A DNA stretch of 4,615 nt from a virus (taxonomy: Duplodnaviria; Heunggongvirae; Uroviricota; Caudoviricetes). The DNA is taken from IMG/VR virus record IMGVR_UViG_2548876963_000005; one strand, given 5' to 3'. Below are positions 1 through 4,547 of this stretch, piece after piece. Each line of letters starts with the position of its first letter. Within the stretch, counting starts at the first letter, position 1. The notes under the pieces were generated by a model. It was not told the DNA's origin, did not search any database, and was given only the letters and a program-made list of their open reading frames with translations. The position numbers were made by a program, and so were the translations under genes.

Positions 1-34
1 AAAAAAAAAAAAAAAAAAAAAAAAACAAAAAAAA
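1..34. repeat. Homopolymeric poly(dA) tract (A25-C-A8) at the window edge
   Basis: Read directly from the sequence. The window begins inside the tract, so the true length is unknown. Confidence 0.95.
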
Positions 35-181
35 CATTATACATTAATGATAATTCTTTTTATTTTACACAATATATAACCCTATTTATGTTATGAGTTT
101 TTAATTCAAATTATCATTATAATCAATCGAGACTCAGTCATACTCGCGCAGATATTACTGACTACTCAATACTTAGTACAG

Positions 182-193
182 TTGTTATAACAA
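182..193. repeat. Perfect 12-bp palindrome TTGTTATAACAA in the AT-rich region downstream of stf
   Basis: Self-complementary 12-mer, flanked by TACAG (177-181) and CTGTA (199-203). Function unknown; could be a dimeric protein-binding site. Confidence 0.4.
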
Positions 194-246
194 TAGCTCT
201 GTAATCCTGTGTTACGAAGAGCGATCTAGTAAAACTCAGATGTAAG

Positions 247-3200
247 TTATAGCTCGGATAGCTTTAACTTTGCTTCAAGCTCCTCAACCCTTTTTGTCAG
301 TTTCTGAATATGATGAATGAGTGGAACAACCAGACGGTCATACATCACGCCTTCTGCAACCATCCCATTATCAGACGCTATACCTGGATCATCCTCGTCT
401 GTAAGAGGACGCCAGTGAACATATTGCGGTGCTATCTCTCCGACTTCTTCTGCAATAAGGCCATAATGTCCCCAGTCCTTTCTGTCCCTTTCACAAGTCG
501 AGCGATACCATACAGGACGAAGTTTCAACAACTCGTCCGCGTACCTGTTCTCTAAAGACTCGATATCCGTCTTGTATCGACGGGATGAAGTCGAACGAAA
601 TACCATGTTGTAACCAGCAACCGGACTTACGAACATGTTAGGACTATCGGTTGTTGTCTGAATGTCGAATATTTGCAAATAATAACAACTTAACGTCTGG
701 AAGTTTGCATCTAACGAGCCGCCTTCGAGTTTTGATGACGTGATAAAACTTTTATTGAGTTGGTTAATCTCCGATATGCTGTAAGCGCCAATTTCAAGCG
801 GTGTGGGCAGTTTCTTTGTGTTCAGTGCACGACGCCATCCGGGGGAATAAGCTGTGCCATTAAACACATAGATAAATTCCGCATTAGTGAGTGCGCCAGA
901 GACACTTGTCGTCGTGGCTGTTGTTATTCGAATGGTGTAATAAGTTGCACTGTGGCTGAATACTTCTATCACCGCCCCCGCCAGTGGAATAATGCCGCAG
1001 CCTGTTTCACTGTCTGGTATGGAGGCGCTGTCAGCGTATGCCCAGGCACAGCGTGCCACCCATGCTTTTGTATTGAAGGCACCATTATTCTGCAATATCG
1101 TCACTAACTGAGCCGTTGTTATTGATGCACCATTACTCCCTGTGCCTAACCAGCCAGTTGGAGATGCCGGGCAACCAATATTTGCTGGTGACAGAGAAAT
1201 ATTTGCCGAACCGTCAAACGACACGCCATTAATAGTACGCGCTGTCTGCAACTTCGTGGCAGTAGCTGCATTGCCTGTAGTGCTCTGGTTACCAGTCGTA
1301 TTAACACCAGGCAAGTTAATATTCGCAGTACCATCAAAGCTCACACCGCCGATAGTTCTTGCCGTCTGTAGTTTTGTAGCTGTTGCCGCATTACCCGTAG
1401 TGTTCTGGTTACCTGTCGTATTTACTCCCGGAATGCTGTCTTTTTTGGTATAAATCTGAGTCCAGTCTTCCTCAAAGCCATAACCATCACGCGAAGAACG
1501 GTAAAACAGACCGCCATTCTTGTAATGAGCGCGAATCTGGAGAGTCTGGCAACTCCCCACACCGGTATAAAAGTTTGCAACAAGACAGGAGTCGCCAGAA
1601 CGCGTGACATTATATGCACCGGATTCAGCATTCCACGGAACGGCTCCATCCGAATCCGCATAAGCCCCCGTCGCACGTAGGGCAAATGCACCAATATTTT
1701 CCGGCGTGAGATTAATATCCGCCGAGCCATCAAACTTAACACCGTTAATTTTTTTGGCTGCCGCAAGTTTCGTCGCGGTATCGGCGTTCCCCTTCAGTGC
1801 CCCGGTGATCCCACCAGTAACAGACAACGGACCTGAAACTGTTCCTCCGGTTGTTGGCAGTGCTCCAATATCTGATGGTGTAGGTTTCTGATGTGAGCTA
1901 TACATCGTATAAACAACACCATCGGTAACGCCGGAAGGCTTACTCGCTGAATAGGCTGGCGATGTATAAACAGAAACTGACGCATTTGCAGTACAATCCC
2001 AATGGATATTTACACTCGTCGCATAATTGCCAGTCTCAACGTAAATATCATATGTATCGCCGGATGTGTTGATCCAGGCGAAATTCGTTAATCCGACGGC
2101 TGTACGCTTCCACAAAGCTCCGGTAATCCCTTTGGGGTTTCCATTGCCTGCTCGTAGAACCAGTTCTGAAATACCTGCCTGCTGTGGGGAGCCGACGTTG
2201 TATCCGGCACCACCAATCAATGTGATGTAAACGATGGAACTCGCTTGTGGCATGGTAACCGTAGCCAGTTTGAACCACCCAGCCCCGCCAGAGAAAGACA
2301 TCGTTACTGAATTTAAAGTACCAATATCTTTCGGCGTTAATGTGATATCCCCAGTCAGTGCTTTCCCGTTAATTTTTCGGTCAGATGGCACCCTGCTGTT
2401 CGCATTGTCATTGACTGCTTTAACTGCCTTTGGCGTTGCGGCCAGCGATTCACTGGTGCTGTCGACAGCACTGCTAAGTTTCACAACACCTTTAGTGGTA
2501 AGGCTTGCGTCTTCCATCGCAACCGCACCGGCAATCTCTTCAGCACGATCAGCAGCAGCTTCCGCACGGGTCGCAGCGGATTCAGCAGCAGTTTTGCTCT
2601 GAGATGCAGCCGTCGCACTGCCTGCCGCCTCTGTTGCTTTCGTGGATGCCGTTGAAGCACTACCCTTCGCAGCTGACGCCTGCCTGATCGCCTCATCTTT
2701 TGAAGCGGACGCCGAGGTGGCTGATGCAGACGCAGAACTTGCAGATTCAGCAGCTGCCGCCTTAGAGGAAGCGGCATTGTCTTCTGAAGTCTTTGCATTT
2801 GTTTCAGAGGATTTTGCTGCCGATGCTGAATTTTTAGCAGCTGTAGCCTGATTCGTCGCCTCAGTCGCTTTTGCGGTAGCTGTTGTCGCTGATGACGACG
2901 CGCTTTCCGCCGATTTCCCGGCGGCGGTGGCACTGGCTGAGGCCTGCCCGGCACTTGTTGACGCGGCACTGGCAGACGACGCAGCCGCTGTTTTTGAGTC
3001 TGCTGCTGCGGAGGCACTCTGTTCCGCTGCCGTTTCAGAAGCCCTGGCGTTCGTCTCGGACGTTTTTGCCGCCTTCGCGGAATTTCCTGCCGCCGTAGCC
3101 GAGGAAGCTGCACTACTGGCGCTCGAGGCTGCGCTCGTTTCTGATGATTTTGCCGCCTCTTTTGAAGCCGCCGCATCCCGGGCTGAGGTGGCAGCGTCTG

Positions 3201-3888
3201 ACGCTTTCGTGGTCGCGGTGGATGCTGAGGTGGCTGCGGATTGTTGTGACGCTGCCGCGTTCGTTTCTGACGTTTTCGCGGCACTGGCACTGGTGGCCGC
3301 CGCACTTTTTGAGGACTCTGCAGCGGCAGCACTTTTTGAGGCTTCAGTGGCCTTTGTTGATGCTGTTCCTGCGCTGGAAGATGCTGACTGAGCAGATGAT
3401 GCAGCCTGTCCGGCTGACGTGCTGGCTGCGCGTGCTGAGTCTGCAGCATCAGTCGCATGGGTTTCCGCCTCACTGGCAGATGTGCTGGCATCGCTGGCTG
3501 ACTTCTTCGCGGCTTCCGCATTCTGTGCCACTGCGGACGCGTTACGCGCCACCTCTTCCACCATCAGTTCAAAACGGCGCAGTGCCTCCGGACGGGCATC
3601 ATCCTCCGTCATTGCGCCGAGAAAATCATTCAGCGTACCCGGCTTTGAATCCTCATACACTGTGATGGTCCCGGCATGCGAAGGCGGAAAACCTTCAACC
3701 AGCAGGGTGACGCTGTACTGGCCATACTCAACGTCCATACTATAACGCCCGGCTTCATCCGGATTTTCTGAGGCCACCGTGTTCACCACCACCGTGGTGC
3801 TGTTGCGTCTGGCCTTTAGCTGAATGGTGCAGTTTTGTACCGGTTTGCCTGCTCCATCTTTCAGTACACCTGAAATCTTAACCGTCAT
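247..3888 (-). CDS. stf: Side tail fibre protein, mosaic: lambda-Stf-like N-terminal half, tail-fibre repeat shaft, divergent distal region, C-terminal intramolecular chaperone (self-cleaving) domain
   Basis: Single open frame of 1215 codons in the supplied ORF track (247..3894 from a GTG). An in-frame ATG at 3886-3888 gives MTVKISGVLKDG..., which matches the lambda Stf N-terminus as I recall it (MAVKISGVLKDG...), and is preceded by GGGGTGA 5 nt upstream. Stop is TAA at 247-249. Protein aa 1-~470 resemble lambda/Rac-type Stf including the long Ala/Ser/Thr-rich segment. aa ~745-815 (VPWNAESGAYNVTRSGDS...GLFYRSSRDGYGFEE) also resemble lambda Stf. The C-terminus carries an S-x-R-x-K-x-D-I type motif and a coiled-coil-like tail. 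Confidence 0.9.
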   Translation of the reverse strand: MTVKISGVLKDGAGKPVQNCTIQLKARRNSTTVVVNTVASENPDEAGRYSMDVEYGQYSVTLLVEGFPPSHAGTITVYEDSKPGTLNDFLGAMTEDDARPEALRRFELMVEEVARNASAVAQNAEAAKKSASDASTSASEAETHATDAADSARAASTSAGQAASSAQSASSSAGTASTKATEASKSAAAAESSKSAAATSASAAKTSETNAAASQQSAATSASTATTKASDAATSARDAAASKEAAKSSETSAASSASSAASSATAAGNSAKAAKTSETNARASETAAEQSASAAADSKTAAASSASAASTSAGQASASATAAGKSAESASSSATTATAKATEATNQATAAKNSASAAKSSETNAKTSEDNAASSKAAAAESASSASASATSASASKDEAIRQASAAKGSASTASTKATEAAGSATAASQSKTAAESAATRAEAAADRAEEIAGAVAMEDASLTTKGVVKLSSAVDSTSESLAATPKAVKAVNDNANSRVPSDRKINGKALTGDITLTPKDIGTLNSVTMSFSGGAGWFKLATVTMPQASSIVYITLIGGAGYNVGSPQQAGISELVLRAGNGNPKGITGALWKRTAVGLTNFAWINTSGDTYDIYVETGNYATSVNIHWDCTANASVSVYTSPAYSASKPSGVTDGVVYTMYSSHQKPTPSDIGALPTTGGTVSGPLSVTGGITGALKGNADTATKLAAAKKINGVKFDGSADINLTPENIGAFALRATGAYADSDGAVPWNAESGAYNVTRSGDSCLVANFYTGVGSCQTLQIRAHYKNGGLFYRSSRDGYGFEEDWTQIYTKKDSIPGVNTTGNQNTTGNAATATKLQTARTIGGVSFDGTANINLPGVNTTGNQSTTGNAATATKLQTARTINGVSFDGSANISLSPANIGCPASPTGWLGTGSNGASITTAQLVTILQNNGAFNTKAWVARCAWAYADSASIPDSETGCGIIPLAGAVIEVFSHSATYYTIRITTATTTSVSGALTNAEFIYVFNGTAYSPGWRRALNTKKLPTPLEIGAYSISEINQLNKSFITSSKLEGGSLDANFQTLSCYYLQIFDIQTTTDSPNMFVSPVAGYNMVFRSTSSRRYKTDIESLENRYADELLKLRPVWYRSTCERDRKDWGHYGLIAEEVGEIAPQYVHWRPLTDEDDPGIASDNGMVAEGVMYDRLVVPLIHHIQKLTKRVEELEAKLKLSEL
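250..588 (-). other. C-terminal intramolecular chaperone / autoproteolytic domain of Stf (endosialidase-chaperone, peptidase S74-like), aa ~1103-1215
   Basis: Motif S1103-S-R-R-Y-K-T-D-I1111 fits the S-(D)-x-R-x-K-x-(N/D)-I signature at the self-cleavage site of endosialidase and T5 L-shaped tail fibre C-terminal chaperone domains. It is followed by ~100 aa ending in a heptad-like EELEAKLKLSEL tail. Recognised from memory of the family, not searched. Confidence 0.65.
1192..1431 (-). repeat. Two tandem 120-bp (40-aa) direct repeats inside stf (aa 822-861 and 862-901)
   Basis: Protein units PGVNTTGNQNTTGNAATATKLQTARTIGGVSFDGTANINL and PGVNTTGNQSTTGNAATATKLQTARTINGVSFDGSANISL. By my manual codon-by-codon count they share 36/40 aa but only about 85/120 nt. 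Confidence 0.85.
1693..1755 (-). repeat. Conserved tail-fibre linker motif, copy 2 (aa 714-735, KKINGVKFDGSADINLTPENIG)
   Basis: Same motif as copy 1, about 620 bp away. DNA blocks accaatat(t/c)tt(c/t)cggcgt and ccgttaattttt are nearly identical between the copies. Confidence 0.7.
2311..2382 (-). repeat. Conserved tail-fibre linker motif, copy 1 (aa 505-528, DRKINGKALTGDITLTPKDIGTLN)
   Basis: K-I-N-G-x-x-(L/F)-x-G-x-x-D-I-x-L-T-P-x-D/N-I-G pattern typical of the phage tail fibre repeat shared among lambda Stf, P2 H, Mu S and T4 gp37-type fibres. Shares short near-identical DNA blocks with copy 2 (for example cccgttaatttt versus accgttaatttt). Confidence 0.7.
2515..3549 (-). repeat. Low-complexity Ala/Ser/Thr-rich coding segment of stf (aa ~116-460)
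   Basis: About 345 aa composed almost entirely of A, S, T with scattered K, E, Q, N, D, G. The DNA is GC-rich and internally repetitive (gc[atcg] codon runs), which opens long spurious ORFs in other frames on both strands. Confidence 0.85.
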
Positions 3889-3891
3889 ATT

Positions 3892-3899
3892 CACCCCAC
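3892..3899 (-). promoter_or_regulatory. Shine-Dalgarno region for stf (GTGGGGTG, 5-nt spacer to the ATG at 3888)
   Basis: Minus strand GTGGGGTGAATATG. The purine-rich GGGG(T)G sits directly 3' of the terminator U-tract. Confidence 0.55.
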
Positions 3900-3926
3900 A
3901 AAAAAGCCCGCCTGAACCGGCGGGCT
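3898..3926 (-). terminator. Rho-independent terminator downstream of lom, immediately upstream of the stf ribosome-binding site
   Basis: Minus strand reads AGCCCGCC-GGTTCA-GGCGGGCT followed by TTTTTGT: a perfect 8-bp GC-rich stem (3905-3912 pairing with 3919-3926), a 6-nt loop and a U-tract. It starts 22 nt after the lom TGA stop. Confidence 0.7.
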
Positions 3927-3947
3927 TTCATCACGCTGTACTACTAA

Positions 3948-4547
3948 TCAGAATTTATAACCGACACCTACGATGAAACTGTCAGTGCGCCAGTCGCCAC
4001 TGCCGGAACCTTCATAAGCGACATCAATGGCCACCGATTCGGTCGGGTTAAACTGCACGCCAGCTCCCCACGCCATAGAGGTGTTACTGTGGCGAGCGTC
4101 ATCACTTCCGGTCAGCACATCGTGCGTTTTCCCCTTGCTGTCGGTCACCTGCAGATAATCCCCGGAGAAGGTCGACACACGGCTGTAAGCCACACCCGCC
4201 ATCGCATACGCACTGAACCATTCATTCACGCGTACAGACGGACCCGCCATCACGCTGAACCAGCGGTTACGCACGGAATCTTCATGCCAGCGGGTATCGC
4301 TGTAACGGGTCAGCTGGCGATTCTTGTCTCCTGCATAGCTGAATGACGTCACCAGCCCCAGCGTGTCCGTAAATTCATAACGGTATTTCACGTTAATGCC
4401 CTTCAGGTCATCGCTGCCTGGCATATCAGTATGGGTCTGAAGATACCCGGCGCTTAGTGTGGACTGATGCTCTGCTGCGCTCGCTGGCGTACCAGCGGCA
4501 ACCAGCCAGACTACTGCGGACAGAATAACAGCACATAATTTACGCAT
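3948..4547 (-). CDS. lom: Lom, Ail/Lom/OmpX-family outer-membrane beta-barrel protein (lambda lom homologue)
   Basis: 199-aa ORF. N-terminus MRKLCAVILSAVVWLVAAGTPASA-AEHQ is a typical Sec signal peptide with an AxA cleavage site. The rest (STLSAGY...GINVKYRYEFTDTLG...SFSYAGDKNRQLTRYSDTRWHEDSVRNRWFSVMAGPSVRVNEWFSAYAMAGVAYSR...VGVGYKF) matches lambda Lom nearly residue for residue as I recall it, and ends in the C-terminal aromatic residue typical of OMP beta-barrels. Position immediately upstream of stf matches the lambda gene order J-lom-stf. SD GAGAGG lies 5 nt upstream of the ATG. Confidence 0.93.
   Translation of the reverse strand: MRKLCAVILSAVVWLVAAGTPASAAEHQSTLSAGYLQTHTDMPGSDDLKGINVKYRYEFTDTLGLVTSFSYAGDKNRQLTRYSDTRWHEDSVRNRWFSVMAGPSVRVNEWFSAYAMAGVAYSRVSTFSGDYLQVTDSKGKTHDVLTGSDDARHSNTSMAWGAGVQFNPTESVAIDVAYEGSGSGDWRTDSFIVGVGYKF

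Follow-up and report, generated by a model that had tools for sequence, protein, structure and literature searches.

Here we describe the distal end of a side tail fibre encoded in a 4,615-nucleotide stretch of Caudoviricetes DNA (IMG/VR record IMGVR_UViG_2548876963_000005, hereafter the window), in which a single long minus-strand open reading frame (ORF), stf (247..3894), specifies a lambdoid side tail fibre precursor of 1215 aa as counted from its GTG start in the ORF list. On balance, the evidence favors a reading in which the last 196 residues of the mature fibre are a mosaic of two independently exchangeable modules and in which a 39-aa cassette at the tip is the part most likely to contact the receptor. 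The initial annotation had taken this segment for one unknown domain without recognizable relatives, serving as receptor-binding tip by position. Its coordinates were accurate: window 595-1182 (minus strand) translates in frame (NIGCPASPTGW...YNMVFR) as aa 905-1100, beginning directly after two tandem 40-aa shaft repeats and ending 2 residues before a Peptidase_S74 match (aa 1103-1159). Residue numbers are counted from the GTG (window 3886-3894, minus strand, spans the start), and an ATG start would shift all of them by 2. With predicted removal of the downstream S74 chaperone by cleavage at T1102|S1103, the segment would form the distal end of the mature fibre, and for that reason a receptor-contacting element likely lies somewhere within aa 905-1100. 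The positional argument therefore stands; the notion of a single, unknown domain does not.

Two thirds of the segment proved to have relatives. With the 196 residues as query, phmmer run on the whole set of Protein Data Bank (PDB) sequences aligned positions 1-132 to residues 201-328 of 8ju3_A (E 1.1e-26), an entry titled 'Tail fiber protein S, S'' of phage Mu, and we refer to this part (aa 905-1036; 787..1182, minus strand) as domain A, a globular alpha/beta knob of the Mu gp52/S' type. 8JU3, the only solved member of this knob type, is Mu gp52 of the G(-) fibre (PMC11821841). PHROG 6722, 3299 and 26292 match the same 130-140 residues (E 1e-31 to 1e-75), with PHROG 6722 at E 9e-75 and the 6722 and 3299 matches to aa 905-1036 together spanning 1e-72 to 1e-75. 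By tblastn against 50,697 phage records, the module was found in 94, with no match spanning more than 70% of the 196-aa query; matches include Mu, D108, P1, P7 (S'), P2-type H, PSP3, SSU5 and the KVP40 distal long-tail-fibre subunit (annotated gp37), as well as Yersinia, Aeromonas, Shewanella and Vibrio phages. A HMMER scan of 1.84 billion cluster representatives returned 401 proteins at E<=1e-3 (311 at E<=1e-10), and nearly all of the best 150 of the 401 cover only query positions 1 to about 140. When 23 diverse members from fibres of phages of E. coli, Vibrio, Aeromonas, Shewanella and Yersinia were aligned (51% mean column identity), the core motifs TTAxF, GAF, SWxY, GxG..LAG, TIRxTT and SPGWRR stand out, and the window sequence has 12/12 invariant residues (12 invariant and 20 nearly invariant columns). 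AlphaFold2 (AF2) gave domain A a closed alpha/beta fold with a predicted local distance difference test score (pLDDT) of 90-97 and a predicted template modelling score of 0.80 for the domain alone, the three-dimensional fold of a Mu gp52/S'-type knob, and the models show aa 915-1029 as a separate closed globular fold. The match to 8JU3 thus supplies a characterized structure for this part, though not a known specificity. No Pfam or NCBIfam model covers aa 905-1036; PF21446 (Gp34_trimer), a label carried by some relatives, was considered and set aside, as it corresponds to the C-terminal border of domain A together with a KPTAADVGALP linker that is missing in the window.

The remainder of the mature fibre consists of two short stretches that evolve at different rates. 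The first, a hypervariable cassette (aa 1037-1075, 39 aa; 670..786, minus strand), comprises a short linker with helix propensity (AYSISEINQLNKSF) and, after it, a variable loop region, and for about these residues alone (aa ~1037-1075) relatives are confined to a small set of proteins from E. coli prophages and T1-like phages. The second, a pre-cleavage stretch (aa 1076-1102, 27 aa; 589..669, minus strand; TTTDSPNMFVSPVAGYNMVFRST), is conserved across the family: the pattern TTT..N....P..G...V.RSTSS is kept throughout, and alignments of many distant S74 proteins begin at about aa 1075-1080. A search with aa 1022-1215 found 175 proteins. Among relatives, mean pairwise identity is 0.43-0.49 in the cassette, 0.60 in the pre-cleavage stretch and 0.73-0.76 in the chaperone. 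Alignments were built on trimmed sequences, as a global MAFFT alignment of whole proteins forced unrelated regions together.

Individual alleles make the pattern clearest. The relative P0137 matches the window at 130/132 positions in domain A, 24/27 in the pre-cleavage stretch and 105/110 in the chaperone (98% identity in domain A and 95% in the chaperone) but at 18/39 in the cassette (only 46%). P0138, which by sequence is the E. coli SE11 allele, shows the converse, with 92/132 in domain A, 30/39 in the cassette, 26/27 in the pre-cleavage stretch and 104/110 in the chaperone. P0020 lacks domain A altogether (cassette 16/39; pre-cleavage 23/27; chaperone 101/108) and shares the cassette allele of P0137, ISEVNAKFNEYVSKRALEASNLDAAFSMLSCYDLYIYDIM; at least 3 cassette alleles are visible in the alignment. 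At the DNA level, E. coli SE11 is 88-100% identical to the window in 60-nt steps over positions 322-741, and identity is 65-75% across the domain A part. In P0149, P0020, P0024 and P0156, the shaft repeat leads straight into the tip and chaperone, with no domain A between. In KarlJaspers, a T1-like phage, and in the lambdoid PhiR55_1, a homologous tip plus chaperone has a gene of its own (226-228 aa), the second one downstream of the fibre gene. Together, the allele comparison, the SE11 DNA and the tips that occur without domain A or on their own indicate that the domain A and tip modules are independent, recombining near aa 1030-1050.

These observations leave almost no room for the reading in which the whole of aa 905-1100 is one receptor-binding domain without known relatives. 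In its favor are the distal position of the segment in the mature fibre and the lack of any Pfam or NCBIfam model on it. Yet two thirds of it match a solved structure and hundreds of fibre proteins, its two parts have been exchanged independently of each other, at junctions near aa 1030-1050, and the models give aa 915-1029 a closed globular fold of their own; a single novel domain is ruled out by the 8ju3_A match, the 401 representatives and the independent variation of the parts. Descriptive details fared unevenly. The segment is indeed rich in Thr, Ser, Gly and aromatic residues, but for Thr, Ser and Gly this is not distinctive (30.1% in the segment vs 31.4% in the whole protein); aromatics make up 11.2% of the segment vs 5.8% of the whole protein. 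Cysteines were correctly placed at 908, 966 and 1070, and the one given as 950 is actually at 949; C949 and C966 are only partly conserved in the domain A family alignment.

The tip is followed by an intramolecular chaperone domain (aa 1103-1215; 250..588, minus strand), recognized from Pfam, conservation and Foldseek. Pfam Peptidase_S74 (PF13884) matches aa 1103-1159 over profile positions 1-57 of 58 (33.8 bits vs a cut-off of 22), beginning exactly at S1103, and Foldseek on the chaperone returned the MyRF intramolecular chaperone auto-processing domain (ICA) 7dc3 and the endosialidase chaperones 3gw6/3gud. The sequence that follows the pre-cleavage stretch reads S1103-S-R-R-Y-K1108. In an alignment of 20 relatives, K1108 (codon 571-573, minus strand) is invariant and R1100, S1101, T1102, S1103 and S1104 are nearly so, as is the motif RSTSS-x-RYK as a whole. 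The scissile bond is accordingly placed by prediction at T1102|S1103, with S1103 (codon 586-588, minus strand) as putative nucleophile and a lysine five residues on. The phage T5 fibre pb1, whose C-terminal domain with its intramolecular chaperone we take to be PDB 4UW7/4UW8, likewise ends in a Peptidase_S74 chaperone, with the same Thr|Ser bond and a Lys at +5 (T1263|S1264/K1269 vs T1102|S1103/K1108). It differs in that its bullet-shaped receptor domain has about 290 residues per chain vs about 66 between domain A and the cleavage site here, and no sequence similarity extends outside the chaperone. In T5 pb1, the scissile bond is T1263|S1264, K1269 is the activating lysine, and only the cleaved form competes with infection, the uncleaved form not (PMC4690869). 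According to the S74 model drawn from the K1F endosialidase and T5 pb1, the C-terminal domain trimerizes and templates intertwined folding, after which Ser and Lys make the cut and the chaperone leaves (PMC12143355 citing Schulz et al. 2010; PMC4690869).

By extension, the fibre studied here could assemble as follows. Each chain of module 1 (aa 905-1036) would fold alone into a compact knob, so that three knobs decorate a trimeric shaft. Module 2, the tip (aa 1037-1102) plus the chaperone (aa 1103-1215), would act as a self-contained tip unit in which the C-terminal S74 chaperone trimerizes first, then acts as template while the ~66 residues before it in the three chains fold around one another, and finally cuts itself off at T1102|S1103 by means of S1103 and K1108. 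A small trimeric tip would remain, with the mature fibre ending at T1102. Residues 1076-1102, by prediction the final strands of this tip, would serve as a scaffold, on which the 39-residue cassette (aa 1037-1075) would be the surface most likely to touch the host receptor. It is this cassette, one fifth of the interval first proposed, that likely behaves as the specificity determinant, judged from its pattern of variation.

Several observations weigh against this reading. The monomer AF2 model of aa 1034-1102 reached a pLDDT of only 47-63, and with 66 residues per chain the tip would make a small receptor-binding domain. In a PDB profile search with the tip plus chaperone, the pre-cleavage tip had no sequence similarity to any solved tip: the profile of 20 relatives matched 8hqz_d, a T5-like L-shaped tail fibre chain, over profile 101-225 only (E 0.0019), that is, over the last few pre-cleavage residues and the chaperone. 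Foldseek against the BFVD viral models gave chaperone-driven matches and no informative tip match. That the receptor is a surface glycan is a guess made purely by analogy with chaperone-bearing lateral fibres; for those of T5-like and T1-like siphophages, binding to O-antigen glycans has been reported or proposed (PMC8594841), and our literature search found no receptor study for lambdoid fibres with this distal end. Finally, domain A itself varies among relatives, with about 70% identity to the SE11 allele, in which the tip stays the same, and it contains an indel-rich loop (EVFSHSATYYTIR vs EVFNNGSSSNNYTIR in the 23-member alignment), so that domain A could equally well carry specificity, or the fibre could have two binding sites.

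This last point underlies a considerably less probable alternative, in which domain A is the receptor-binding domain (RBD), a laterally exposed glycan-binding knob, and aa 1037-1102 are a structural cap that the chaperone needs in order to fold. The SE11/P0138 comparison, in which domain A differs and the tip is nearly the same, and the indel-rich loop both speak for it, and T-shaped fibres that combine two RBDs, one in a lateral domain and the other in a chaperone-bearing T5-like tip, are the subject of a published proposal (bioRxiv 10.1101/2024.09.12.612763). Against this, the core of domain A is highly conserved across phages of unrelated hosts, the domain is dispensable for the tip module, and the literature citing the Mu structure, the primary structure paper aside, gives no binding function for the Mu domain. 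Its usual location argues the same way: domain A normally occupies a mid-fibre position, and beyond it come different distal domains served by chaperones of their own. We found it at residues 808-946 of 1341 aa in the Cyrano fibre, 539-667 of 966 aa in PhiR29_2 Stf, 681-797 of 1094 aa in KVP40 gp37, 793-932 of 1260 aa in the SSU5 fibre and 358-483 of 736 aa in P2-type H. Beyond domain A, Mu and P1 S' have a further domain and then the tip, and in 147/147 top representatives further residues follow it (median 211). From these mid-fibre positions and the length of sequence beyond, domain A is a standard mid-fibre module, shared by many myophage and siphophage fibres, and not a tip, and its most likely role in the window fibre is structural or that of an accessory binder of low affinity.

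Another, rather unlikely, possibility is that the segment is purely architectural and that the host is touched elsewhere, through domains further upstream (aa ~530-680, or a second Mu-type domain at aa 736-816) or through a separate adhesin. There are indeed further globular regions upstream in the fibre. Domain B (aa 736-816; 1447..1689, minus strand), a second domain of the Mu gp52/S' type, was identified by phmmer and blastp: residues 324-440 of 8ju3_A align to aa 736-856 (E 1.4e-21), and identity is 54% to Mu Sv' 164-244 and to P2-like H 479-559, and likewise to P1. Recruitment of separate adhesins has also been suggested for some fibres that end in S74 (PMC12143355). However, no candidate adhesin gene follows stf, and if aa 1037-1075 were purely structural, their cassette-like hypervariability amid nearly identical flanks would be difficult to account for.

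Comparison with Mu underlines how the modules have been rearranged. The structure of the phage Mu G(-) tail fibre gp52 (S/S'), 8JU3, was reportedly described by Mori et al. in 2024 (Virology 593:110017; cited in PMC11821841). Domain B aligns to the next Mu domain (54% identity over aa 736-816), but the domain order is swapped here, with B upstream, then the repeats and then A; in Mu, P2 and P1, A precedes B. The Mu fibre continues to a tip that needs the separate chaperone U', whereas here domain A is followed by the 66-aa tip and a fused S74 chaperone. The two 40-aa shaft repeats between B and A (aa 823-862 and 863-902; 1189..1428, minus strand) translate as GVNTTGNQNTTGNAATATKLQTARTIGGVSFDGTANINLP / GVNTTGNQSTTGNAATATKLQTARTINGVSFDGSANISLS and share 35/40 residues; Tandem Repeats Finder did not report two 120-nt repeats in the DNA, though they are clear at the protein level.

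The closest counterparts of the tip unit are stand-alone proteins of ~230 aa, annotated as 'lateral tail fiber chaperone' or 'chaperone of endosialidase', in Drexlerviridae (KarlJaspers bas06_0035, PeterMerian, BEBK14, Jahat_MG145) and in the lambdoid PhiR55_1. They are 52-68% identical (tblastn) to aa 1037-1215, in local alignments that begin at about aa 1038-1053, and they share the RSTSS-x-RYK site and the TTT..N...P motif with the window fibre. In contrast to the fusion seen here, they are separate genes in which an N-terminal coiled coil replaces the long fibre. The KarlJaspers gene lies at L010 4327-5004 and the PhiR55_1 gene at L011 4375-5058; each is preceded by an ORF of ~90 aa and is downstream of the lateral or side tail fibre gene, and one record annotates the gene as 'putative lateral tail fiber chaperone'. 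Such a gene could encode a distal mini-fibre rather than a chaperone. A bolder and more tentative proposal is that aa 1037-1102 represent an unsolved minimal receptor-binding tip, with the cassette mounted on the 27-aa scaffold as a portable adhesin cartridge and with host specificity set by cassette exchange alone. If so, the cartridge would serve in two settings: in the window it would be fused to a lambdoid Stf, and T1-like phages and PhiR55_1 would deploy it as a separate mini-fibre of ~230 aa.

For practical purposes, the candidate for specificity is narrowed from a 196-residue 'unknown domain' to a 39-residue cassette, with the variable loop of a known knob domain as second candidate. 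The module boundaries also offer natural fusion points for engineering lambda-type fibres, one after the shaft repeat and the other after domain A near LPTPLEIGAY. The fibre is otherwise ordinary, a mosaic built of modules familiar from Mu, P1, P2, T5-like and T1-like phages, and its distal sequence occurs in identical form in only 4/5426 complete E. coli genomes.

The proximal part of the protein and the surroundings of the gene are those of a lambda-type fibre. Pfam phage_tail_N (PF08400) covers aa 3-136 of Stf (E 2e-72), and residues 1-94 of PDB 9e7m, a lambda-type tail fibre N-terminus, align with aa 3-96 (E 2.6e-50). Since residue 1 of 9e7m aligns to codon 3, the true start is probably the ATG at that codon, which would make the protein 2 residues shorter. 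The same DNA occurs in E. coli A25 (99.7% identical), where stf is the last prophage gene, in the order J-lom-stf and adjoining the bio operon; in the window, a lom-like ORF (3948..4547, minus strand) lies upstream of stf. With the Stf of lambda (Ur-lambda), for which binding to OmpC has been reported, the fibre shares the N-terminal attachment domain (phage_tail_N; 9e7m), the J-lom-stf order and an Ala/Ser-rich shaft. It departs from lambda Stf at the distal end, which is unrelated: the lambda protein has a T4 gp37-like tip that needs Tfa, and here there is a fused S74 chaperone and no tfa. No tfa gene was found 3' of stf, either in window 1-246, which holds no ORF, or downstream of stf in E. 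coli A25, which fits a fibre with a built-in chaperone.

No Pfam or NCBIfam model falls on aa 137-1102. Within this span, aa 137-460 (window ~2515-3486, minus strand) form a 324-residue Ala/Ser/Thr-rich region with no aromatics, 38% Ala and 56-63% GC. The A25 fibre allele has 1108 aa vs 1215 aa here and is identical over the last 400 aa, so the length difference lies upstream of these, probably in the Ala-rich region. Along stf, GC content steps down from 56-63% in the Ala-rich shaft through 47-51% in mid-gene to 42-47% at the tip and chaperone, and such steps fit a mosaic origin of the modules.

The spacer 3' of stf (window 1-246) is 246 nt long, AT-rich (28% GC) and ORF-free, and it starts with a long A-run at window 1-37 (25 A, one C, 8 A). 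E. coli A25 has several shorter, interrupted A-runs at the same place, so the length of the A-tract differs among strains. The gap between lom and stf contains, immediately before the start of stf, an inverted repeat rich in G+C (gcccgcc...ggcgggc; window ~3901-3930) that is followed by a minus-strand T-run and looks like a putative intrinsic terminator; terminators are annotated in the lom/stf area of related phage records.

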